A DNA stretch of 64,000 nucleotides, taken from contig CAVZDU010000001.1 of the NCBI GenBank assembly GCA_963774265.1, forward strand, positions 32,001-96,000, given 5' to 3'. The stretch comes from an uncultured Chloroflexia bacterium (GTDB taxonomy: Bacteria; Chloroflexota; Anaerolineae; CG2-30-64-16). Below the pieces are notes generated by a model. It worked only from the letters and a program-made list of their open reading frames with translations. It was not told the origin of the DNA and searched no databases. Of this stretch, positions 41,787 to 61,153 are shown one piece after another (position 1 is the first letter of the stretch; the number at the start of each line of letters is the position of its first letter). The translations under genes were made by a program, and so were the position numbers.

Positions 41787-43292
41787 TCAGCGCCTCACGA
41801 ACGGGGCAAAAACTACCGCCTTAGGATTGATAACCGTAATGGGTAAGCCTGTCGAGCCTGCGCGCACTGTAACGGTGCGAGTGCCCGGCTTCAGCGTTGC
41901 ATCCGCAGTCAACTTGATCGTCGAAATACCCCAGGGTGGGTTCATCGTCGAAGGACTGACCGTCCCCCGCACCCCCGAGGGCAGCTCCAGGGCGATTGAT
42001 GTTTGCGCCGATAACCCATAGCCCTGCAATGTAACGGTTGTCGATGCGCCTGGACGGAGCAGAACGACGCTGCTGCTGAGTATAAACGGCTGACTCGGAT
42101 TCGAACAAAGGGCGTAGGGTGGTGTAGCCTGCGCCACGGTGGGCAGCCCGTTTGTGTATGTACTCGTGCGAACGGTGTTCACATAAGCGTCGGTGATCTT
42201 GCGTCCCGCATCACCCGGCAGCGGCTGCACACCGGTGCAGCCTCCGCTATTCTGACAGTCCTGTCCACCCGTGGTCACTCGGAAGTCCGCGTTGCCACGG
42301 CTACCATACGCGAAATCGTTGAACCAGACAATTCCCCGCACAAATGGATAGTCAGCCAACTTGGTGTACAGGTTCGTGATCCAGGCAGCCTTAGCAGAAC
42401 CGCTCCCATCCTGATCGACGGATCCGATTTCCGAGATAATCACCGGTTTAGCATAGCGACATGCCAGATCGCGGAGGACGCCATCATACAACACCTCGAA
42501 GCTTTCCCAGGGTCGATCGCGCCAACTATACCAATTGTACCCGCTAAGACCGATCCAATCAACATAGGCGTCTCCGGGATAGTAGTTGTGAAGGCTATTC
42601 CAGGCTTCGTCTGGGTTGCTGGCGTAGTTCGGTGACCATATCCACTCGACGTTGTTGGCGCCCACCTCACGGAAGAGGTTCCGGACGCGCTGGAACATGG
42701 CAACATAGGATCCTGCATCCAGTCCATACCGTCCCGGCCACCACGCCACGTCGCTGATGTTCATTTCATGAGCGAAACGGATGATGAAGCGTTCCGGGCG
42801 CGCTTTGAGGGCCCGTGCATAGCTGCGAATATAACCATCGCAGCGCCCCGCGTTTACGGCGCGCAACGGCCCTTGCCCGTCATTGAAACCCAAGTCGCAT
42901 CCAGAGCTGTTAGCCGTGGGTTCCCATGCCAGGAGGATTGTCGGTCGACGTCCTTCCGGTACTTTGTTCAGAATATCATCGAGCAGGAATGGATCGAATG
43001 CAGACCAAGGGGTGAAGAAGGCGACAATCGCAAGATCCTTGCCGACCAGGCCATTGTAGGCCATGACCTCGTTGCCGTAGGAGTACCAATTGCCGTTGCC
43101 GTAATCGACAAACACAGGCCGCAGATGGGCGCCGTGTGCGATGCCAAGCACGCCCGCAACTGGGACGGCATCCGGACTCTCGGATTGAGGAATATCCTGT
43201 GCAAATCCCACGAGAGAGCTCGTGATGAAAAGCACTATAATTTGAGTCAACAGTAGGTAGAAGGCGCGAACGCGCCTGTTTTGGCCAGTCAT
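41787..43292 (-). CDS. Secreted GH26 (beta-mannanase-like) hydrolase with Ig-like tail and C-terminal VFAPFVRR motif
   Basis: Signal peptide; RFAHEMN, WSPN, YYPGDAYVDWIGLSGYN, KPVIISEIG. Confidence 0.9.
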   Translation of the reverse strand: MTGQNRRVRAFYLLLTQIIVLFITSSLVGFAQDIPQSESPDAVPVAGVLGIAHGAHLRPVFVDYGNGNWYSYGNEVMAYNGLVGKDLAIVAFFTPWSAFDPFLLDDILNKVPEGRRPTILLAWEPTANSSGCDLGFNDGQGPLRAVNAGRCDGYIRSYARALKARPERFIIRFAHEMNISDVAWWPGRYGLDAGSYVAMFQRVRNLFREVGANNVEWIWSPNYASNPDEAWNSLHNYYPGDAYVDWIGLSGYNWYSWRDRPWESFEVLYDGVLRDLACRYAKPVIISEIGSVDQDGSGSAKAAWITNLYTKLADYPFVRGIVWFNDFAYGSRGNADFRVTTGGQDCQNSGGCTGVQPLPGDAGRKITDAYVNTVRTSTYTNGLPTVAQATPPYALCSNPSQPFILSSSVVLLRPGASTTVTLQGYGLSAQTSIALELPSGVRGTVSPSTMNPPWGISTIKLTADATLKPGTRTVTVRAGSTGLPITVINPKAVVFAPFVRR

Positions 43293-52130: not shown

Positions 52131-53606
52131 CTATTTGGCCGGCAGTGTGAAAGCGAATACGTTGTCTGCCTCGTCCCGCTCCGCAACCAGATTGGCGGGA
52201 TCGACGACTGCCCACAAGTCGGCCTGCGCACTTGGCGCGCCAACCCAGTTCGCGGTGACCGTTGACGTTGCTCCGCAGCCTTCGAGAACATACACAAACC
52301 GTTCGGCGCCGATCGGAGTCCCGCCCTGCAGAGGATTGCCACGATAGAACTTCACCCCAAACATACCCGGTATGGCCGAATTACCGTTGTTCGCGACGGT
52401 AACAGACAGGGTGACCTGCTCTGTGCCGGAACCAGCCTCGCGCGTAGCCGATGCACGGACTGGTTGCAGATTAACATCGCCCGGATACCGGGCGGCAAGC
52501 GCGGCGAAGTTATCCCCATAAACGGTGCGCTGCCGGGTCAACGGACTGAACAGCATGCCGTTGTACCCATCGCTCAGGCTATACCACGCCCAGGCTTGGA
52601 CGAGGCGGTCATTGTCGGGAGGATAGCCGTTTGGTCCGGTCGCTGAATTCAGGAACTCAAAAGCTCCGGTCATGAACGCATTCACGCGAGCGGGACCAAA
52701 GCCGGAGCCGTAATCCTCTGGCCAAAGAATGCCGAACTCGGTAATGATCAGTGGGCGATCTTGATAGTCGCGGTCAGCCATCCACTGCCGGAATGTTTCG
52801 ATGAAGTCCTTAAAGATGTCCAGGCGATCGTGATCGTCGATTTCGTAGAGCATCCCTTCGTCTGCACGGATGCCCGGCGGTATGTCTGCGCCCCAAGAAT
52901 CAGGCCAATCACCGCGTCGCTCCCGGAGGATGAAAGCATGGATGTTCCAGACATCGACAGGCATCGCCGGCTCGTCGGGGTTCGGCCGGCCGTAGAGCCT
53001 CTCGTACTCCTGCAACACCATATCGAGATACTGAAGGCGCAGGGGTGTAGGTTGGACGACGGCGCCGATGGCGACCCGGGCGGTGGGGTCTACCTGTTTG
53101 ATCACCGTATACAGATCATGATAGGCTCGCGCATACGGGCCCGGCTCGATGCTGTCTTGCCAGTACCTGCGATCAGGTTCATTGCCGATGATCCACAACG
53201 CCCCGACCCGGCCAGCCACGATTTCCGGCAACTCATCCGCTGTGGGCTGAGATGCGTAACCATCATTGCCGATTTGCGACAGACGGATCATGGGATGATA
53301 GGTGATTCCGTCGGGCTGCGCTGGATTTGGCGTCGTCGTCCAATCGAGATACCAGCCCAGCCGCAAGGCCCGAATCGGATAGGCGGCAATGGCGGAAGTA
53401 CCGCCGACGCCCAACCGGCACAACTTCTGGCTTGCAGGGATCGCGGTGTTCGCGATCGCTGGCAGAAGGAGCCGGCCCTGTGATTGCGGCGCCTGGAGCG
53501 TGACTGCCGGCGCTGCTTGCGCCGAACTGACTCGCAGCAACAAGATCAGAGGCAAAAGCCAGAATACGGATATCGCCGCAATCCGCAAGGGCCGCACCAA
53601 TGTCAC
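52131..53606 (-). CDS. Secreted clan GH-A glycoside hydrolase with C-terminal CARDB domain
   Basis: Signal peptide; IGNEPD (acid/base), WNIHAF, PLIITEFG (nucleophile); V.NNG...VVDPANLVAERDEADN. Confidence 0.8.
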   Translation of the reverse strand: MTLVRPLRIAAISVFWLLPLILLLRVSSAQAAPAVTLQAPQSQGRLLLPAIANTAIPASQKLCRLGVGGTSAIAAYPIRALRLGWYLDWTTTPNPAQPDGITYHPMIRLSQIGNDGYASQPTADELPEIVAGRVGALWIIGNEPDRRYWQDSIEPGPYARAYHDLYTVIKQVDPTARVAIGAVVQPTPLRLQYLDMVLQEYERLYGRPNPDEPAMPVDVWNIHAFILRERRGDWPDSWGADIPPGIRADEGMLYEIDDHDRLDIFKDFIETFRQWMADRDYQDRPLIITEFGILWPEDYGSGFGPARVNAFMTGAFEFLNSATGPNGYPPDNDRLVQAWAWYSLSDGYNGMLFSPLTRQRTVYGDNFAALAARYPGDVNLQPVRASATREAGSGTEQVTLSVTVANNGNSAIPGMFGVKFYRGNPLQGGTPIGAERFVYVLEGCGATSTVTANWVGAPSAQADLWAVVDPANLVAERDEADNVFAFTLPAK

Positions 53607-54988
53607 GGCATCTGCTCTAGATAAAGCGGTTGCTGGCTCACCGTGAACCGCACAAAGCCATCCGATGAGCCATCGTCGCCGTCCCGCAGAATGCCCTGGA
53701 CGACGCCCAGCGAATCTGACACCTTGAGGTTATCTCCCGCCAGCTTCAGTGTGACGGGACTGAAGGTGTCTGTCCAGGCCACATACAACTTGTGACCCGC
53801 CTTAAACTCATACACATGCTCGTCTTCGCTTCCCCCTCTCTCGTTCTGGGGAACCGCGCGCAAGAAGGTGGCGCCACTCAACTTGCCCGCCATGGAGCGA
53901 TACGCATCGAAGGAAGGTTTCCGCACCCCCGCAGCCGTCAGCAGACCCGTTTCGCCCCAATAATCCGGCAGATCGAGCCAAGACCACCAGATCATAAGCT
54001 GGTTGCCTGCAGCCGCGGATTGCGTGGACATCTTCACCAGGTAATTGGCCTGCACTTGTGGCGAGCTGGGCTGCGATGGCTCGGCATCGCTGTGGTGCCC
54101 GGCCTCAGTGACGATGATAGGCATCCACCCATACCCGTATCTCGACAATATATCGCGCAGGTAATTGGTCTTGCCCATCAGGCCGTCGCCGTATGGCTTC
54201 CACCGCCACTCGAAGTACGGGTAGTAGTGGAAGTTCATCAGGTCCATGCAGTTCCCGCCGCCGTTCTTCAACACGTCCTCGATGAAGCTGCGAACAAACG
54301 GACCCCTGTCCTCTTTGAAGAAATCGTACGCGATGCCGCCGATAGCAACTCTCGCGCTCGGGTTCGCTGCCTTGGTTGCACGGTAGGCAGTGCAAAGCAT
54401 GGCCGCATATTCCTTGCCGTATGGACCCCAGAACGGCTGGACTCCTTCCGCTCCGACAACATCGCCGGCATCGGGCTCGTTGTAGAGTTCCCAAATGCGA
54501 ACCTTGGGCGAGCCGGGCGCATCCTGATTACCGTCGCCGTCATAGCGTTCGACCAGCGCGCCCATGAACTGGCCGAATTCATCCAGCCCGACTTTGTCAA
54601 TGGGGCCATTGGTATAGGTGGCCGCCCACTTCGGAGCCCGTTCAATCGTCACAAGCGGACGCAGATTGAGCTGCACTGCGGCCAGCATGGACGCATCCAT
54701 CGAGGACCAGTCGTATTTGTCCGGCGTCGTGTTATTTGGCTCAACACTCCCCCAGAACACGCGCCAGCGCAACCAGTCCACCCCAGCCTCTGGGGTGTCC
54801 GCGGCATACTGATCGGTGACGGCGCCGTACATTTGGACCCCAAATGCAGGCACGGGTTTCTGGTTGAAGACCGCCGGAAGCGTCAACGTATTGCCGGAGC
54901 CCGCCTGGTCAACAGGTGTCTGGGCGGCCGCTGATGCGGGACAAAGACAGGCTAGGCAGCAGAGTGCCACAACGAGAAAACGCAGCAT
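53603..54988 (-). CDS. Secreted GH39/GH5-like glycoside hydrolase
   Basis: Signal peptide ending ASA-AAQ; ERYDGDG, WELYNEPD, NFHYY, PIIVTEAG, KPSF.AY. Confidence 0.82.
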   Translation of the reverse strand: MLRFLVVALCCLACLCPASAAAQTPVDQAGSGNTLTLPAVFNQKPVPAFGVQMYGAVTDQYAADTPEAGVDWLRWRVFWGSVEPNNTTPDKYDWSSMDASMLAAVQLNLRPLVTIERAPKWAATYTNGPIDKVGLDEFGQFMGALVERYDGDGNQDAPGSPKVRIWELYNEPDAGDVVGAEGVQPFWGPYGKEYAAMLCTAYRATKAANPSARVAIGGIAYDFFKEDRGPFVRSFIEDVLKNGGGNCMDLMNFHYYPYFEWRWKPYGDGLMGKTNYLRDILSRYGYGWMPIIVTEAGHHSDAEPSQPSSPQVQANYLVKMSTQSAAAGNQLMIWWSWLDLPDYWGETGLLTAAGVRKPSFDAYRSMAGKLSGATFLRAVPQNERGGSEDEHVYEFKAGHKLYVAWTDTFSPVTLKLAGDNLKVSDSLGVVQGILRDGDDGSSDGFVRFTVSQQPLYLEQMP

Positions 54989-54993
54989 ACCTT

Positions 54994-56037
54994 TCACCTT
55001 TTGGATACAAGTGGGAGGTAGATGGAGTAAGAATAAGGCGCACACCAGCGCACGAGCCGGTTCTGCGCGTTATCTGCCAGCCAACCACATAGGTTTTCGT
55101 CAAAGGACAGCCCGGTGAAGCCGGCGCCGGGCGCCGGTAGCTCTCGGACCACCGTCGATGAGGGACCCAGCCAGCCTACTCGTTGCCCGGTCCGCTCGGT
55201 AAACCAGATTCGTCCCCCGGCCAGCTCGATCGCATAGGGATTACTCCCCGCGACAGACAGGCCAACCCATCGCAGAAGAGTCAATGTGCCGGGGTCATAG
55301 TGGCCGATTCGATTGCCGGCCCGATCCGTAAACCAGGGATACGCACCGGTCTCGACGCTGATATTCCAGGGTTCACTGGCTGCGCCTGTGTAGACGAAGG
55401 CAAACGCAAGATCACCCGGCCACAGGTTCAAGTTAAACCGGCCGATTTGGCTTGTGCCGGGCGCAGTGAACCACGCAATCCCATCGCCAGCCAGATCAAT
55501 GTCTTCAAACTGCGCACCCGGCGTTGGAGATGCATACTCGGTGAGAGTGGCCTCACCCTGAATGGGAATCACCAAACGGCCGACCTTGTTCCCGGTGCGC
55601 TCGACGAACCAGACCTCGGTTGGATCGCCTGGTTGCACGTCCAACCCGGTGGGTTCACTGGCGAGCGTGGGGATCGCGTATTCAGTCCAGCTTGTCATGG
55701 CAGGATTGAACTGCGCGATCTTGTTGCCGGCCCGCTCCGTCACCCAGACCAGCTGATCAGCACAGGCGATATCGTAAGGTTGGCTTGCTGGGGTAGGCAG
55801 GGAAAACGTTTGAACGGCGACGCTCGGCGCCAGGCTTAAGCGGCCGAGCATATTCTGCTCCGGCAGCGTAAACCACACCGTGTCAGGTGACTGGGCGCAG
55901 ACCCGAAAGGGCTGGCCAGCACCAATCGGGTACTCGGTGAATACCCCTGCAGCGGCTTGCGCTGCGACTTGTGGCGCACCAAATGCGGCCGCGAGGACCG
56001 CCCAGAGCACAACCACAATGGCTGGTAAGGTCGCCAT
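54994..56037 (-). CDS. Secreted Vgb-like beta-propeller protein with C-terminal YLPLVSKR motif
   Basis: Signal peptide; repeated P..I......WFTE..GN.IG blades; SD GGAGG. Confidence 0.85.
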   Translation of the reverse strand: MATLPAIVVVLWAVLAAAFGAPQVAAQAAAGVFTEYPIGAGQPFRVCAQSPDTVWFTLPEQNMLGRLSLAPSVAVQTFSLPTPASQPYDIACADQLVWVTERAGNKIAQFNPAMTSWTEYAIPTLASEPTGLDVQPGDPTEVWFVERTGNKVGRLVIPIQGEATLTEYASPTPGAQFEDIDLAGDGIAWFTAPGTSQIGRFNLNLWPGDLAFAFVYTGAASEPWNISVETGAYPWFTDRAGNRIGHYDPGTLTLLRWVGLSVAGSNPYAIELAGGRIWFTERTGQRVGWLGPSSTVVRELPAPGAGFTGLSFDENLCGWLADNAQNRLVRWCAPYSYSIYLPLVSKR

Positions 56038-56069
56038 GGAGGACCTCCGATGCCAATCTATAGCAGGAC

Positions 56070-56588
56070 CTAAGGCCAAGCCAGTTCAAGTTTGCCCAGG
56101 TCAACGCGTTCATCGGCCTTAATGGAGAAAACCCGAGGCGAATCCTCTGAACGCGACTGCGGGATGACCAGCCAGTTCAATGGAGCCCATATCACGAGGA
56201 AATAATCCCCAGGCAGCACATTGTTCAGCAAAAATCGTCCCTGCTCATCTGTCTTACCGCTGATATCGCCTTGTTCAGGCCGGGCGCTTCCCATCACCGC
56301 AGGCAGTTCAGTTGCACTATCCTGCAAGTGATAGAGATAGAAGTAGGTCCCAGGCACGGGGCCATTGCCGGTGTAAGTGAAGATTTCCCCGCCGACCGTG
56401 GCCTTCCCGGCTTCTGACGCAGGTAGTGGGAGAGCATTGTTGGCGACAACGGGAGGCGGCAGCGGCGAAATCGGCGATTCGGTCGCCAACGGGGGCATGG
56501 TTGTTGCTGGTAAGCTACTGCAGGCAGCGAACACCCACATCGTCATCAGCAGGACAAAGACAATCCACCAACTCGATCTTGTCATCAT
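56070..56588 (-). CDS. Lipoprotein with Pro-rich linker and carboxypeptidase-regulatory-like beta-sandwich
   Basis: Lipobox FAA-C; SPISPLPPP linker; TDEQGRFLLNNVLPGDY. Confidence 0.8.
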   Translation of the reverse strand: MMTRSSWWIVFVLLMTMWVFAACSSLPATTMPPLATESPISPLPPPVVANNALPLPASEAGKATVGGEIFTYTGNGPVPGTYFYLYHLQDSATELPAVMGSARPEQGDISGKTDEQGRFLLNNVLPGDYFLVIWAPLNWLVIPQSRSEDSPRVFSIKADERVDLGKLELAWP

Positions 56589-56621
56589 TCTTCTAAGTAT
56601 AGACTAAAATCGCCCACACGT

Positions 56622-56654
56622 AAAACTGGCCAGCCGTTGGTGCGGCTGGCCAGT
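56622..56654 (-). terminator. Intrinsic terminator after the repeat surface-protein gene
   Basis: ACTGGCCAGCCG-N6-CGGCTGGCCAGT with a T run on the minus strand. Confidence 0.85.
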
Positions 56655-56687
56655 CCTTACAGGCTGAACCTACAGGATCGCTAAAGG

Positions 56688-58118
56688 TTACGGCTGCGTG
56701 AAGGCATTGTGTGCCATGAAGTTGTCACCGCTGGCCAGGCTTGGGTTGATGGATGCCAGGAACGTGAGCTGAGCGAAGCCCGCCAGCGCATGGTCCGAGT
56801 CCACCACCAGGGTGCCATTCCAGCCATCGGGCAGTTCCGGCACTGCCGTGCGGTGATTCTGGATCAGGTTGCCACCCGCCGGGATCGACGCACTAAATGA
56901 GATCGGGGTTGCGCTGCCGCCAGCTGCGATGTATTCTGCCGAAGGCGTGTACGTCAAGGTCGCGTTCGCTGCGTTGGCCGTATCCAGGTTCTGGACCGTG
57001 ATCGCGGTCGCGAACCCGTTCGGCAGGCGCTTGGCAACCAGCGGGACAACGACCTTCGTATCGGTCGAGCCGCCCCGGAAAGCCTCGTAAGCCGCCGCTT
57101 CGCCGGTGGCCACAAAGCGCATCTGGACGAACGCCACGACGTTGCCCGTCGAAGTGACAACACAAGAACCCGTGTACAGCGCAGGAACGGTCATGTCGGT
57201 CACAGGGTTGACGGCCCAGGCGGCCTTGTTCGGAACGGCGTCCGCGTTGGTCTTACTAAACGGATTCGCGTTGTTGGTGTCTTTGCAGTTCACGGTGATG
57301 CCGCCGGCCGCAATCGGACCGCCGCTCAGGTTCTGGACCGAGATCGGCGTGCTCAGGCTATTCGCCAGGCGGGACGTGAAGAGCGGGACGAACCACTGTT
57401 GCGCCGGTGCAGACACCGGGAAGGCGTTGAAGGTCTGCATCGCGTCGCCGGTGAAGAAGTTGGCGACGACTGCAACCTGCCCGCCACTCAGCGCGCGCAC
57501 TTCGGCGGAACCGATGAAGCCATCGCTCAACCCGGGTTCGGTAGCGAGATCGTACAGGAACGCTGCGTTCGGTGCGATCGCAATGCCGGTCTTGGTGAAG
57601 CCGGCGCCGCCGACACTGGAGAGCAACTCAACTTCCACGCTCACGGAGGCCGTGCCCGAATTCTGGATCACGATCTGGCTATTGGCAAGGCCCGTTGCGG
57701 TGGGCCGATTCTTAGCTGCCAGCGGAACATAGAAGGACGCGGCGCCGGCCGAGAAACCGGAATAAGCGCCGCTGCTGGTCGGGTTTTGACCACGTGCGAG
57801 GACCTGGACAACCGCGCCCACAGACTTATCGGCGCTCACAACAACCGAGCCACGGCCCGCAGCGAGAGCCGAGTCAAGGTACTGGCGGAAGATTTTCTGA
57901 CCGCCATTGGCTGCCAGCGTGAAGCTCTCATCGGCTTTCCACACCGTGCCATCCGTCTTGAAGTATTGCACGGTGCCGCCTGCCGGTTCACTTTCAAGGT
58001 TCACAAGTGTGAAGTTGGTGCTCAGGCTCTTGGTGGTCGACTGCGCCGCACCCGTAAGTACTGTCGCCAGTATCAGGGTGAGCGTGAGAAGGGTGATTGA
58101 GACGGTCCTTCGCTTCAT
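56688..58118 (-). CDS. Secreted 476-aa protein with four ~110-aa beta-rich repeats; candidate S-layer/major surface protein
   Basis: Sec signal; four repeats with (I/V/L)QN-type...GS/GT..V.S...VxxV motifs; A/T/S/G/N-rich; own promoter, AGGAGG SD and terminator. Confidence 0.7.
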   Translation of the reverse strand: MKRRTVSITLLTLTLILATVLTGAAQSTTKSLSTNFTLVNLESEPAGGTVQYFKTDGTVWKADESFTLAANGGQKIFRQYLDSALAAGRGSVVVSADKSVGAVVQVLARGQNPTSSGAYSGFSAGAASFYVPLAAKNRPTATGLANSQIVIQNSGTASVSVEVELLSSVGGAGFTKTGIAIAPNAAFLYDLATEPGLSDGFIGSAEVRALSGGQVAVVANFFTGDAMQTFNAFPVSAPAQQWFVPLFTSRLANSLSTPISVQNLSGGPIAAGGITVNCKDTNNANPFSKTNADAVPNKAAWAVNPVTDMTVPALYTGSCVVTSTGNVVAFVQMRFVATGEAAAYEAFRGGSTDTKVVVPLVAKRLPNGFATAITVQNLDTANAANATLTYTPSAEYIAAGGSATPISFSASIPAGGNLIQNHRTAVPELPDGWNGTLVVDSDHALAGFAQLTFLASINPSLASGDNFMAHNAFTQP

Positions 58119-58182
58119 AAGATTGCCTCCTGCGGAACGATAGGTCGAGTTGACGAGGTCTTGGGGACTTCGTACCGGGCCT

Positions 58183-58211
58183 AGTATGGACGCTGCGCGG
58201 CTAAAAAGCAA
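58183..58211 (-). promoter_or_regulatory. Sigma70-type promoter for the repeat surface-protein gene
   Basis: Minus strand TTGCTT (58211-06), 17-bp spacer, CATACT (58188-83); SD AGGAGG at 58131-26. Confidence 0.6.
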
Positions 58212-58243
58212 TACCCCAAGTGGGTTAACTATGCCCGCGCGGG

Positions 58244-59215
58244 TCAAACAGGCGTATCTTCCCGCCCTTTTCGCGTCGCGCGGAGCGCAAAGCCTGCCAG
58301 CACCCAGGCAAGTTCGGCCAGGACCATGGCCAGTCGCGAGATAACTGCGACGAGGCCCCCCATCGCCACGGGCAGACCGGCCGCTTGTACCAGGACTGCC
58401 GACATGACCGCCTCACGCACACCAATGCCAGACGGGACAAAGAGGATAAGAAACCCGACTGCCCACGAGGCCGAGGCTGCCAGCGCGCTGACGCGTAGAT
58501 CGATGCCGGATCCCGGAGCCACGGCCCGGGCAACCCAATAGACCGACGCGGCATAGGAGAGCCAAAGCGGCACTGTCAGCGCCAACGCGGCGACCCACGC
58601 GCCGGGCTGCGGCGCAGAAGGAAACGCCAACCGCCTGAACCGCCTGCCAGCCCATTCCACAAACCGCGGCGCGAGAAAGACGGCCAGGCACATCAAGATG
58701 ATGGACCCGACGGGCGCAACGTGACGCCAGGGTTCTCCGAGAAGCGGCCCGCCAGTGACTCCGACGCACGCGATTGCTGTCACAAGGATCGCGGCTGCTT
58801 CGAGCACCGACCCGGTCAACGAGAGGGGATAGCCCACACCGTGGTCGTCCAGCAGCCACTGGCTTCGGCTCAAGTAGCCCCACACGGTGCCGGGGATGTA
58901 GCGGGGCAGAAAGGAGATCATAAACCCTTCTGTCGTCTCCCGCAGGGTGAGGGCCACGCAGAGATAACGCATGATGGCGCGCCAGGCCACCATCTGGAAA
59001 GCGGAAAGTACGAGCGCTGCGACGAATGCCGGGATCAATTGCCCAAGCGAAAGCTCGCCCAGGCCATCATACTGTTGCACCGCGAGCCAGGCGATCCGCA
59101 GCTGGTTGGCGAACAGCCCCAGGCCGAGCACCAGGCCAACGCGCCAGAGGACCGCGCGCAGCGACCAACGTGACCGCCCCGGGCGACCGCTGTCCGGGTC
59201 AGGAAGCATGGTCAT
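58244..59215 (-). CDS. Lysylphosphatidylglycerol-synthase-TM/UPF0104 flippase-like membrane protein
   Basis: RYIPGTVW, VPSGIGVREA, SR motif; about eight TM segments. Confidence 0.85.
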   Translation of the reverse strand: MTMLPDPDSGRPGRSRWSLRAVLWRVGLVLGLGLFANQLRIAWLAVQQYDGLGELSLGQLIPAFVAALVLSAFQMVAWRAIMRYLCVALTLRETTEGFMISFLPRYIPGTVWGYLSRSQWLLDDHGVGYPLSLTGSVLEAAAILVTAIACVGVTGGPLLGEPWRHVAPVGSIILMCLAVFLAPRFVEWAGRRFRRLAFPSAPQPGAWVAALALTVPLWLSYAASVYWVARAVAPGSGIDLRVSALAASASWAVGFLILFVPSGIGVREAVMSAVLVQAAGLPVAMGGLVAVISRLAMVLAELAWVLAGFALRATRKGREDTPV

Positions 59216-59967
59216 GAGCTTACGCCTGGCTTCCAGAGAAGCCAGTTGAAATTTGGAAAAAACGGCAACGCCGAGCGCCAGATCCACCGGGGAAGTCTCC
59301 GCCCGAGGCGCGCGATCGGGCGCGTATCCGCGGCCAACTGGCTCTCCAACACTTCGAGCGTCACATCCTGGATATCAAAACGCTGCCACAGGCGACGCAA
59401 GCCCCACATTGGCCGGGAACGTTCGTAGTAGCGATCCCCGCGGCGCAGAACGCGCAAAGTGGCGTTGGCCAGGGGGGAGGGCAGCCAATGCACAAAAGGC
59501 AGGTTGTAGTGAAGCTCGATCGGAAACAGCCAATTTGGACCGCTAAAGAAGACTACCCCTCCCGGCGCAAGTACACGGTAAATCTCCTCGGCTAGCCGCG
59601 TGTCGTCCGGAACGTGCTCGTACACCTGCGCGCACAACACCACGTGAACGGATGCATCAGCGAGCGGCAAACGCATCGCGTCACCCCGAACGAAACGCAC
59701 GGCGGCGCGACCCTCGAGCGTCGTTGCGCCGAGCGCCAACGCGTCATATTCCACGCCGACCATCGTGCGAAAAAGTGAGGCTAATGAGGCGCTGATCAAG
59801 CCCGAGGAGCAGCCGATGTCCAGGCAGACTGCTTCAGCCAGAGGCCACGCCACGTGCCGTTCGAGGAGCATCCGAATCTTCGCTGCACGTCGCGAGCGGC
59901 TGGTCGCGTCCCGTACGGCGGCGGATAACTCATAGAAACCGTCCTGATAACCGCGCGGCTCAGCCAC
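59212..59967 (-). CDS. Class I SAM-dependent methyltransferase
   Basis: CLDIGCSSG, GDAMRLP, VYEHVPD, RVLAPGG. Confidence 0.92.
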   Translation of the reverse strand: MAEPRGYQDGFYELSAAVRDATSRSRRAAKIRMLLERHVAWPLAEAVCLDIGCSSGLISASLASLFRTMVGVEYDALALGATTLEGRAAVRFVRGDAMRLPLADASVHVVLCAQVYEHVPDDTRLAEEIYRVLAPGGVVFFSGPNWLFPIELHYNLPFVHWLPSPLANATLRVLRRGDRYYERSRPMWGLRRLWQRFDIQDVTLEVLESQLAADTRPIARLGRRLPRWIWRSALPFFPNFNWLLWKPGVSS

Positions 59968-61153
59968 TGACGCCTCGGTAAATTTCGACCAGTCGAGCAG
60001 CGATGATATCCCAATCGTACTCCTTTTCTGCCCGGAGTCGCGCAGCCCGGCTCATGGCCTGCCAGCCAGGGTCGTCGCTCAAGACCGCCGTGATAGCCTC
60101 GGCCAGCGCCTGGGGCTGCGCAGGTGGCGCCAATTTGCCCACCTCCTGCGTGACGACGTCGACGATGCCATCTACAGCGCTCGCGACAATGGGAGTGCCG
60201 CACGAGAGTGCTTCCAGGAGGACCACGCCCAGCCCTTCCTCCAGGCTCGGCAAGACAAACAGCCTCGCCCGGCGCATCGCGGCCACGACTTCCGCCTGCG
60301 GCAGGAAGCCCGCCATGTCGATGCGATCGACGATGCCCAACGCCGCGGCCTGTTCGCGGAGCGCTTGCTCATCCGGCCCATCGCCCAGCATGACCAACCG
60401 ATAGCCAGGAAGGGCTGTGAGGACAGATGGCATGGCCTCGATCAAATGGTTGGCGCCCTTGCGCGGAATCAACGAGCCCACAAACAGAATCAGAGGTTCA
60501 CGTTCCGCCACTGGCGCCGGGGTGAACCGCCCGGTATCGACGCCATTCGGTACGATTGTCAGGCGGTCCATCGGTATGCCGGTGCGTGCGGTCGCCTGCG
60601 CCAGCGCGCGGCTCAGTACCAGCACGCGGTCGCAGGCCCGCAGTGTGGCCGCGGTCAGCCGGCGCCCGAGCCCGCTTCTTGTCACCTGAAAAATGTCGCT
60701 GCCCTGCAGAGTGGCAACGACCGGCCGGCGGTGGACGGGCCGCGCAAGCACAGCCGCAAGCGCCGACAACGTCCAGTTGGCATGCACCACGTCGCAATCA
60801 CGTGCCCACCGTGCGATCGCCAACACGTGCGCCAGGCCAAAAGGCACGAACAGCAACCGGGCCAGCTTGTTACGTCGCCAGATGATGGGCAGTCCACCGC
60901 CTTCGCGTCTCAGGATCTCCCAGTTCTCCCTGGGCATATAGCGCGGGCGGATGACCTCGATGCCTTCAAGCGTCTCATGCGTGGCCGCGCCCGGTGCGTG
61001 CATCGCGATCACGCGGACCGCAGCTCCCGTCCGGCAAACGGCGCGGGCGGCCTCCCAAACAAAACTGCCCTGCGCGTCGCCGGCCCAGCGGGGAAACGCA
61101 GTTGTAACGATACAGACTCTCAATTTGCGATCCATTTCCCTCAAGGGGTTCAC
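59960..61153 (-). CDS. GT4 glycosyltransferase
   Basis: GSD, VPNGVD, RKG, EGLGVVLLEA (EX7E). Confidence 0.93.
   Translation of the reverse strand: MNPLREMDRKLRVCIVTTAFPRWAGDAQGSFVWEAARAVCRTGAAVRVIAMHAPGAATHETLEGIEVIRPRYMPRENWEILRREGGGLPIIWRRNKLARLLFVPFGLAHVLAIARWARDCDVVHANWTLSALAAVLARPVHRRPVVATLQGSDIFQVTRSGLGRRLTAATLRACDRVLVLSRALAQATARTGIPMDRLTIVPNGVDTGRFTPAPVAEREPLILFVGSLIPRKGANHLIEAMPSVLTALPGYRLVMLGDGPDEQALREQAAALGIVDRIDMAGFLPQAEVVAAMRRARLFVLPSLEEGLGVVLLEALSCGTPIVASAVDGIVDVVTQEVGKLAPPAQPQALAEAITAVLSDDPGWQAMSRAARLRAEKEYDWDIIAARLVEIYRGVSG

Follow-up and report, generated by a model that had tools for sequence, protein, structure and literature searches.

An ASRAH tetrad protein with an open first domain and the YLP-box tag: a candidate split-domain docking pair in Chloroflexota

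Introduction

In chaperone-usher pili, an incomplete immunoglobulin (Ig)-like pilin receives its missing strand from a second polypeptide, and donor-strand complementation is also found in type V pili. In the cohesin-dockerin system of cellulosomes, a tag on many secreted enzymes plugs into a non-catalytic receptor with carbohydrate-binding capacity; the dockerin is a folded calcium-binding domain of about 70 amino acids (aa) and the scaffoldins carry many cohesins. The engineered SpyTag/SpyCatcher pair is a split beta-sandwich in which one strand is a peptide tag that becomes locked by an isopeptide bond. Here we describe a locus of an uncultured Chloroflexia bacterium, located in a stretch of 64,000 nucleotides (GenBank assembly GCA_963774265.1, contig CAVZDU010000001.1, positions 32,001 to 96,000; hereafter the window), in which a secreted 476-aa protein (P0001) is modelled as four tandem ASRAH-type domains, hereafter the tetrad, and a neighbouring secreted protein ends in a YLP-box, a short tag with the consensus hydrophobic-Y-L-P-L-V-x-K/R. 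The first repeat of the tetrad has no first strand, and we consider it fairly probable that the YLP-box is this very strand, given in trans, such that the two would form a natural docking pair made from a split domain. Soils, sediments, hot springs and wastewater all harbour Chloroflexota in abundance; to our knowledge, it is poorly understood how proteins are retained at the unusual envelope of these bacteria.

The proposed pair shares with the archaeal threads, as far as the sources covered describe them, an incomplete beta-sandwich that is completed by the strand of another polypeptide. It differs from the chaperone-usher pili in that the fold is ASRAH and not Ig-like and in that it lacks the first strand, at the N-terminus, whereas the pilins lack the C-terminal G strand. 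Furthermore, the donors here would be enzymes and not subunits as in the pilus and thread systems, so no polymer would result, and no chaperone or usher family turned up among the window neighbours scanned. In contrast to the cohesin-dockerin pair, a tag of only 8-11 aa would join the receptor's own fold with one socket per receptor; Pfam gave no Cohesin or Dockerin match on either P0001 or its tagged 361-aa neighbour. Compared with SpyTag/SpyCatcher, the pair would be natural and non-covalent.

ASRAH domains were described by De Souza, Iyer and Aravind (2009, PMC2739507). The passages of that paper covered here state that strand 1 opens with an aromatic residue 'central' to joining both sheets, that the asparagine ending strand 2 is nearly invariant, that the domains are found as tetramers, dyads or tetrads with a predicted sugar-binding cleft, that they are linked to glycosyltransferases in Actinobacteria and that the Chloroflexi tetrads are always fused to an amidase. 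The Chloroflexi tetrads of these passages and P0001 have the same fold, the invariant Asn, four tandem domains, secretion and predicted sugar binding in common; P0001, on the other hand, stands alone and its first domain is without strand 1. The same passages hold no link of the tetrad to a terminal tag, and no paper linking the YLP-box to the tetrad was found in a search that did not cover Additional file 1 of PMC2739507, which possibly lists stand-alone forms. The nearest named family is that of the actinobacterial DUF5719/ASRAH-dyad lipoproteins, which like P0001 are linked to a glycosyltransferase but differ in having two domains, a lipobox and flanking extensions of their own. As for the tag, the NCBIfam model NF050076 describes the same tag and names only the motif; neither its family name nor the papers found in our searches yielded a receptor or mechanism for the YLP-box.

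Results

Structure and conservation of the tetrad protein

The open reading frame (ORF) of the tetrad protein (Table 1) and its N-terminal hydrophobic leader, both reported in the initial annotation of this DNA, were verified. AlphaFold2 places a helix at residues 2-24 with low values of the predicted local distance difference test (pLDDT) at residues 23-25, and an A-x-A-type signal cleavage site is kept in the aligned relatives. The segments FYVPLAAKNR, WFVPLFTSR and VVVPLVAKR lie exactly where they had been placed earlier, their x-V-P-L motifs falling at aa 130, 243 and 357. An x-I-x-(V/I)-Q-N strand comes next in all three cases. Repeat 1 opens with QSTTKSLSTNFTLVN straight behind the leader, the VPL strand being absent. 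The earlier observation that this repeat starts at its second strand holds for all of the 41 (alignment A1) and 79 (alignment A2) aligned relatives, in which repeat 1 is likewise without a VPL strand; the distant stand-alone relatives inspected also begin at strand 2 right behind the leader.

P0001 consists of four homologous domains, on the basis of the AlphaFold2 model and of the asparagine that ends strand 2 in every repeat. The repeats are real, as had been claimed, though weakly alike: pairwise BLAST of the cut-out repeats gave E-values of 8e-7 (repeats 3 and 4), 9e-5 (2 and 4), 0.002 (1 and 3), 0.005 (2 and 3), 0.13 (1 and 4) and 0.41 (1 and 2), and no repeats were detected in a self-BLAST of the whole protein. 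The AlphaFold2 model, based on 79 sequences, has a pLDDT of 95.1 and a predicted template modelling score (pTM) of 0.90 over the whole chain. In a structural comparison with VIA-align, the best match was Thermotoga TM1070 (1nc7_D; Z 14.6, root-mean-square deviation (rmsd) 3.1, 109 of 117 residues), followed by ASRT, the transducer of sensory rhodopsin in Anabaena (2ii8_C; Z 10.8, rmsd 2.0, 87 residues aligned), while the next family scored only Z 6.5. Each repeat is thus predicted to be an ASRAH-type (ASRT/TM1070-like) beta-sandwich, because TM1070/ASRT is the one clear relative; the Ig-like fold assumed in the initial annotation is not what the model gives. Residues 123-237 of the model correspond to TM1070 residues 1-116, which makes the VPL strand part of the next domain, as its first strand, and means that the domain boundaries drawn earlier are right.

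The signature asparagine of the ASRAH domain was found in all four repeats (N40, N153, N263 and N377). These residues are invariant in A1 and their equivalents are invariant in alignment A4; in A2, N153 is conserved in at least 90% of the members, P245 is nearly invariant, and N40, N263 and N377 are invariant together with P132 and P359. Among the arrangements known for ASRAH domains (solo tetramer, dyad or tetrad), P0001 has that of the tetrad with its four tandem domains. At the start of strand 1, where ASRAH domains have a conserved aromatic (Trp), repeat 2 has F129-Y130, repeat 3 has W242-F243 and repeat 4 has V-V, and the strand is absent in repeat 1. Since the conserved aromatic is central to sheet cohesion according to the passages covered of PMC2739507, strand 1 is not a dispensable edge.

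P0001 belongs to the ASRAH domains by fold and signature and not by a match to a hidden Markov model. A Pfam scan gave no family at E<=10, including ASRT (PF07100) and DUF5719 (PF18986), and nothing significant was found in NCBIfam. DUF5719 was matched by three of five relatives with 24.5-27.2 bits (cut-off 26.2), and the named Atlas clusters nearest to P0001 are Actinomycetota DUF5719/ASRT proteins (0.93 and 0.92). Two further searches were discarded: a profile search of PDB sequences with the P0001 family returned chance matches only (E 1.2-1.5), and Foldseek with the whole model returned generic tandem Ig-like chains at a template modelling (TM) score of ~0.1, which were not used for naming.

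The P0001 family comprises 560 proteins of similar length (~480 aa) at E<=0.001; identity to P0001 is 50-87% for the best 120 of them, and the same threshold gave 394 cluster representatives. Both ends of the protein are conserved, the mature N-terminus as (Q/G/A)STTKxLSTNFTLVN and the C-terminus as GDxFMAHNAFTQP. Five members with 51-57% identity (P0028, P0052, P0099, P0106 and P0111) are labelled as archaeal metagenome-assembled genomes (Bathyarchaeia, Methanomethylicaceae and Nitrososphaeria), which could be due to binning contamination or gene transfer. In one soil metatranscriptome run, short contigs were observed mostly over 56400-58400, mainly on the tetrad gene. Sixteen of the 25 pieces are only 90-95% alike and are therefore probably derived from relatives; as contig depth cannot rank genes, they show only that transcripts of relatives may exist.

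Fused and closed homologues

The position of the missing strand can be compared with relatives in which repeat 1 is preceded by additional sequence. In 15 of the 17 enzyme-tetrad fusions inspected, a [YF]-x-P-x-hydrophobic motif (such as TYLPDL and RVYLPNL) lies directly ahead of strand 2 of repeat 1. The N-terminal domains of ten fused relatives were scanned and contained Peptidase_M23 (five), Golvesin_C (three) and Peptidase_S8 (two), with none in two. An S8 subtilase of the genome studied here ends in a YLP tag instead of a tetrad fusion.

A second arrangement was found in two 'closed' homologues, L009 (genome G104) and L010 (G347), in which a leader and a long Thr/Pro-rich linker are followed by a full YLP-box ahead of repeat 1 (TTLFIPFVLKR in L009 and NTVYVPLILNR in L010). 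In the AlphaFold2 model of L009 (pLDDT 87, pTM 0.81), residues 19-76 are disordered, and a strand is predicted over TTLFIPFVLK (residues 82-91), with blocks at pLDDT 91 and 85. The genomes of these closed homologues carry one tag (G104) and no tag (G347).

These fusions also bear on the S-layer-like scaffold of the initial annotation, that is, a tetrad forming a lattice on a monoderm surface on which the enzymes are displayed. The high conservation of the family (50-87% identity over the full length for the best 120 of 560) and the secretion of P0001 without a membrane anchor would suit such a protein, and the metatranscriptome pieces on the gene add a weak hint of expression only. We consider a lattice highly improbable, however, as no evidence for one was found and neither Pfam nor NCBIfam gave an SLH or other S-layer family on P0001; with no family from Pfam, the protein has no SLH or other anchoring domain. 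In addition, the fold is ASRAH/TM1070-like, structure matches to multi-domain surface proteins remained at a TM score of ~0.1, and in the fused relatives M23 and S8 enzymes carry the tetrad as a module at their C-terminus, which is more in keeping with a wall-binding module than with an S-layer.

The YLP-box and the proteins that carry it

The tag is already curated in NCBIfam as NF050076 ('YLP-box putative sorting motif-containing protein'), a model of 11 positions. The segment IYLPLVSKR was confirmed as the C-terminus of the gene at 54994-56079 (minus strand), which encodes a 361-aa beta-propeller. Against NF050076 it scores 15.4 bits in a six-frame search of the genome, over the cut-off of 15 bits, and 11.8 bits (E 0.18) in an hmmscan of the protein. 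Of the five co-located tagged proteins that had been claimed, four terminal look-alikes were found in the window, and only IYLPLVSKR fits the model. One of the other three is the end of the protein at 41787-43292, which has a GH26 match at E 3e-5. The remaining two belong to adjoining secreted proteins of 480 aa and 491 aa (52131-55045, minus strand), each of which has x-L-x-L-P-A-[VI] just behind its leader; neither has a match to a catalytic domain in Pfam and the second has a C-terminal CARDB domain.

The tag was then scanned for in the whole genome (5.5 Mb, 10 contigs), from which 5018 greedy ORFs with 1,707,126 residues were taken. Out of 39 matches to a strict motif, 19 lie within five residues of the C-terminus, seven fall among the first 90 residues and 14 have internal positions, with one 90-aa ORF counted in two of these groups. 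From the share of positions (5018 x 6 of 1,707,126), about 0.7 C-terminal matches would be expected, against the 19 observed. By a crude rule, a leader-like segment was called in 14 of the 19 C-tagged ORFs, compared with 25% of all ORFs of at least 150 aa. About 16-24 proteins of this genome match NF050076.

Pfam families typical of exoproteins were found in 14 of the 19 tagged proteins scanned and none in the other five. The families are diverse and include S8, FG-GAP, VWA with CARDB, CBM96, penicillin amidase, C25, Sortilin/BNR (three proteins), DUF11, InlB B-repeat, Cohesin, 5'-nucleotidase C and Rv2525c-like. The Cohesin match is a weak one (E 5e-6) on a 199-aa protein (G000:C6:40470-41069; L113), which terminates in TLFLPLVSRFAVTP, a YLP-box followed by five further residues.

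Among 120 homologues of the 361-aa propeller, the close orthologues keep the tail ...WCxPYF..YLPL(V/I)x(K/R). Distant homologues finish with a propeller blade or, as in P0330-P0384 and going by about 18 tails, with a C-terminal transmembrane helix that is followed by a basic tail. A transmembrane helix in distant homologues at the place where the tag sits in close ones fits a retention role for the tag, and helix and tag appear, judging from these tails, to be alternative means of retention within a single family of enzymes.

Predicted docking of the tag

The complex of the tetrad (aa 27-476, alignment A2) with the last 40 residues of the 361-aa neighbour was predicted using ESMFold2. The interface score ipSAE was 0.92, 0.93 and 0.90, with a best value of 0.00 among three controls; the benchmark mark for this method is reached in 58 of 80 solved complexes and in two of 110 mismatched pairs. 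Between runs, at least 97% of the contacts are shared, and the partner has a pLDDT of 62. Residues 347-361 of the partner (APYSYSIYLPLVSKR) contact residues 31-125 of repeat 1, and the predicted interface, which lies between repeats 1 and 2, also spans residues 150-154, 186-188 and 216-220 of repeat 2. The lowest predicted errors within the docked tag were observed for Y354, L355 and P356, and Y354 is the aromatic that the neighbour's tag would supply. The docking on repeat 1 that had been anticipated for this tail was therefore obtained, and the prediction supports the compatibility of tag and repeat 1, as distinct from binding.

In the prediction, the docked tag makes 111-115 contacts for its 15 residues. 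This deeply buried interface speaks against the tetrad being an extracytoplasmic sorting receptor or chaperone that binds its clients only transiently, releasing them to the wall, to a sheath or into a step of secretion. Such a carrier would account for one socket per protein and one gene against at least 19 clients, and for a tag that functions at either terminus, but the natural fusions make the link permanent; buried interface and fusions together suggest a stable complex, and we regard transient binding as very unlikely.

Distribution in the phylum

The co-occurrence of tag and family was examined in 401 genomes of the phylum (of which G038, G227, G344 and G272 are unpublished), where the family was detected with profile A3 at E<=1e-8 and YLP-box matches were accepted at E<=1 with up to 23 candidates scored per genome. 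A stand-alone full-length form, i.e., a profile start at <=15 and a frame of <=640 aa, was counted from 150 of the 209 matches. The family was found in 29 of the 188 genomes without tags (stand-alone full-length form in at least 8), 27 of 146 with one or two tags (at least 15), 12 of 25 with three or four (at least 10), 17 of 18 with five to nine (at least 16) and all 24 with ten or more (at least 21). The phylum-wide association that the initial annotation proposed to test is supported by a dose-like rise with the number of tags. Taken as a 2x2 table (41, 1, 68, 291), the family is present in 41 of the 42 genomes with at least five tags and in 68 of the 359 others, and the tag-rich genomes are spread over 13 taxonomic families. 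Thirty-nine genomes have only fused, closed or partial forms among the matches listed, and 35 of these 39 have three tags or fewer.

The outcome depends on the sensitivity of the family search, since a single sequence detected the family in 30, profile A2 in 89 and profile A3 in 109 of the 401 genomes. The poor co-occurrence obtained with the single-sequence search was discarded as an artefact of sensitivity; four of five apparent exceptions have full-length members by A3.

Genomic neighbourhood

The features of the window discussed in this study are listed in Table 1. Five genes, encoding a GT4 glycosyltransferase, a methyltransferase, a flippase-like protein, the tetrad and a lipoprotein, are syntenic in G207, G218, G121 and G242 and partly in G391. 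In the window, the gene ends of this five-gene module (56688-61153, minus strand) overlap by a few bases, which suggests one operon that makes and uses an envelope glycoconjugate. More widely, the window carries a polysaccharide cluster of the Wzm/Wzt type, which includes GT2 and GT4 genes and a gene for a secreted protein resembling GH26.

In 40 of 50 related loci, the tetrad gene has a lipoprotein of ~170-200 aa immediately downstream; none was found in the other ten, some of which end at a contig edge. The lipoprotein has a lipobox Cys, a Pro/Thr-rich linker that varies strongly and a domain of the CarboxypepD_reg-like kind, and its C-terminus is conserved as ...LGxxYVSWP-COOH (L049-L096); the lipoprotein of the window has a weak fn3_3 match. 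It is likely to be a physical partner or membrane anchor of the tetrad.

Table 1. Coordinates of the tetrad gene, its repeats, the tag and look-alikes, and the neighbouring genes in the window
Feature	Position	Strand	Remarks
Gene of ASRAH-tetrad protein (P0001), proposed receptor/scaffold	56688..58118	(-)	476-aa secreted ORF
Signal peptide, ~aa 1-25	58044..58118	(-)	putative cleavage after G-A-A; without lipobox Cys
Repeat 1, aa 26-122, proposed socket	57753..58043	(-)	starts at strand 2 (STNFTLVN, N40), without strand 1
Repeat 2, aa 123-237, complete ASRAH domain	57408..57752	(-)	first strand SFYVPLAAK (57705-57734 with NR)
Repeat 3, aa 238-352	57063..57407	(-)	first strand QQWFVPLFTS (57369-57395)
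Repeat 4, aa 353-476	56691..57062	(-)	first strand KVVVPLVA (57027-57053); C-terminus GDxFMAHNAFTQP
Client candidate, secreted Vgb-lyase-like beta-propeller, 361 aa	54994..56079	(-)	Pfam PF24684, E 1.7e-35
C-terminal YLP-box tag IYLPLVSKR of 361-aa propeller	54997..55023	(-)	NF050076
Weak N-terminal look-alike LTLPAVFN, behind leader of 480-aa protein (53603-55045)	54863..54886	(-)	regular expression only
Weak N-terminal look-alike LLLPAIAN, 491-aa CARDB-bearing protein (52131-53606)	53448..53471	(-)	regular expression only
Weak C-terminal look-alike VFAPFVRR, GH26-like protein (41787-43292)	41790..41813	(-)	regular expression only
Lipoprotein, 172 aa, possible membrane anchor/partner of tetrad	56070..56588	(-)	lipobox Cys, CarboxypepD_reg-like, C-terminus ...LELAWP
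Flippase-like membrane protein (LPG_synthase_TM)	58244..59287	(-)	Pfam E 1e-11; synteny L039, L040, L042
S-adenosylmethionine (SAM) methyltransferase	59212..59967	(-)	Methyltransf_11, E 1.4e-20; synteny L039, L041, more weakly L040, L045
GT4 glycosyltransferase	59960..61153	(-)	Glycos_transf_1, E 6e-41; synteny L039-L042, weakly L045

This neighbourhood gives weight to an explanation in which the tetrad is a plain envelope glycan-binding protein of the five-gene module. Repeat 1 would then tolerate the gap or have it filled by the lipoprotein, the YLP-box would be read by other machinery, and the likeness of tag and strand as well as the co-occurrence would stem from shared lineage and a common taste in beta-strand motifs. 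The five-gene synteny and the lipoprotein with its conserved C-terminus in 40 of 50 loci agree with this, as do the at least 23 genomes that keep the open form with two tags or fewer and the confident modelling of repeat 1 by itself; NCBIfam, for its part, calls the tag merely a 'putative sorting motif'. ASRAH domains are also predicted sugar binders with a link to glycosyltransferases in Actinobacteria (PMC2739507, in the passages covered). Nevertheless, we judge glycan binding as the whole explanation to be unlikely because it leaves four observations unexplained, namely the YLP-box exactly at the first strand of repeat 1 in fused and closed relatives, the few tags in genomes with only closed or fused forms, the family in 41 of 42 genomes with at least five tags, and the tag docking with an ipSAE of 0.92 against 0.00 for the controls. 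As for the lipoprotein as strand donor, its conserved ...YVSWP end is unlike the missing strand and its linker has only loose L-P-L/V pieces.

Discussion

Computation gives the tetrad's anatomy, the homology between tag and strand, the fusions, a co-occurrence across genomes and a predicted docking, and from these results we infer that the tag would bind in cells, that this binding would be stable and where the tetrad would be anchored. The idea of repeat 1 as a socket completed in trans, put forward in the initial annotation, gains support from the fusions, the closed homologues, the co-occurrence and the docking, while the S-layer and Ig labels attached to it do not. In the mechanism that we propose, the first ASRAH domain of the tetrad would be genetically 'split', being without its aromatic-bearing strand 1, and the missing strand would be supplied in trans by the YLP-box, which ends many unrelated secreted proteins of the genome or sits behind their signal peptide. 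Inserted between repeats 1 and 2, the tag would tie its client non-covalently to the tetrad, and the secreted tagged enzymes probably dock onto the tetrad in this manner. The tetrad itself is likely to be retained at the envelope, either through a glycan bound in the ASRAH clefts, which could be made by the products of the syntenic GT4, methyltransferase and flippase-like genes, or by the conserved neighbouring lipoprotein.

Several observations weigh against docking in trans, the support for which is computational throughout. Repeat 1 alone, with strand 1 absent, is still modelled at pLDDT 94-98, and the docking may draw on what the model knows about fused relatives or about the internal repeats. 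A single socket encoded by a single gene faces at least 19 clients. In the window, three of the four look-alikes are not matched by NF050076 (AVVFAPFVRR, RLLLPAIAN and TLTLPAVFN, the last at a threshold of E<=10). Co-location of tag and tetrad is not a rule either, as a clearly C-tagged neighbour lies beside the tetrad gene in only one of ten related loci.

The distribution in the phylum has its own weak points. At least 23 genomes keep the stand-alone full-length form with two tags or fewer, and the five closest orthologue genomes include G218 and G242 with one tag each and G121 with three; an open repeat 1 is thus kept even where clients are few. G227, an unpublished record of 1040 contigs, has six tags and no family match. 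YLP-box matches at E<=1 include noise, as five of 14 control genomes were positive, and the 2x2 test overstates the association because genomes are kin and not independent.

On balance, docking of the YLP-box as strand 1 of repeat 1 is the reading that we favour. A broader proposal is that open tetrads and YLP-boxes work together across many Chloroflexota lineages as a natural 'tag and catcher' system that is independent of sortase; we consider it slightly less likely than not. Dozens of unrelated exoproteins per genome would then be bound to the surface by donating strand 1 of the first domain of a receptor, which would in turn be held by its partner lipoprotein or by an envelope glycan that its own operon makes, and evolution would have switched repeatedly between fused, closed and split forms.

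If docking in trans is true, a curated but unexplained 'putative sorting motif' would gain both a receptor and a mechanism. The cargo of a genome would become predictable from its sequence, and would here comprise proteases, an amidase, glycoside-hydrolase-like, VWA and BNR proteins. The natural pair of an 8-11-residue tag and a non-covalent catcher, found in lineages rich in thermophiles, could also be tried as a tool. Finally, donor-strand complementation would be extended from the building of fibres to the general display of proteins.

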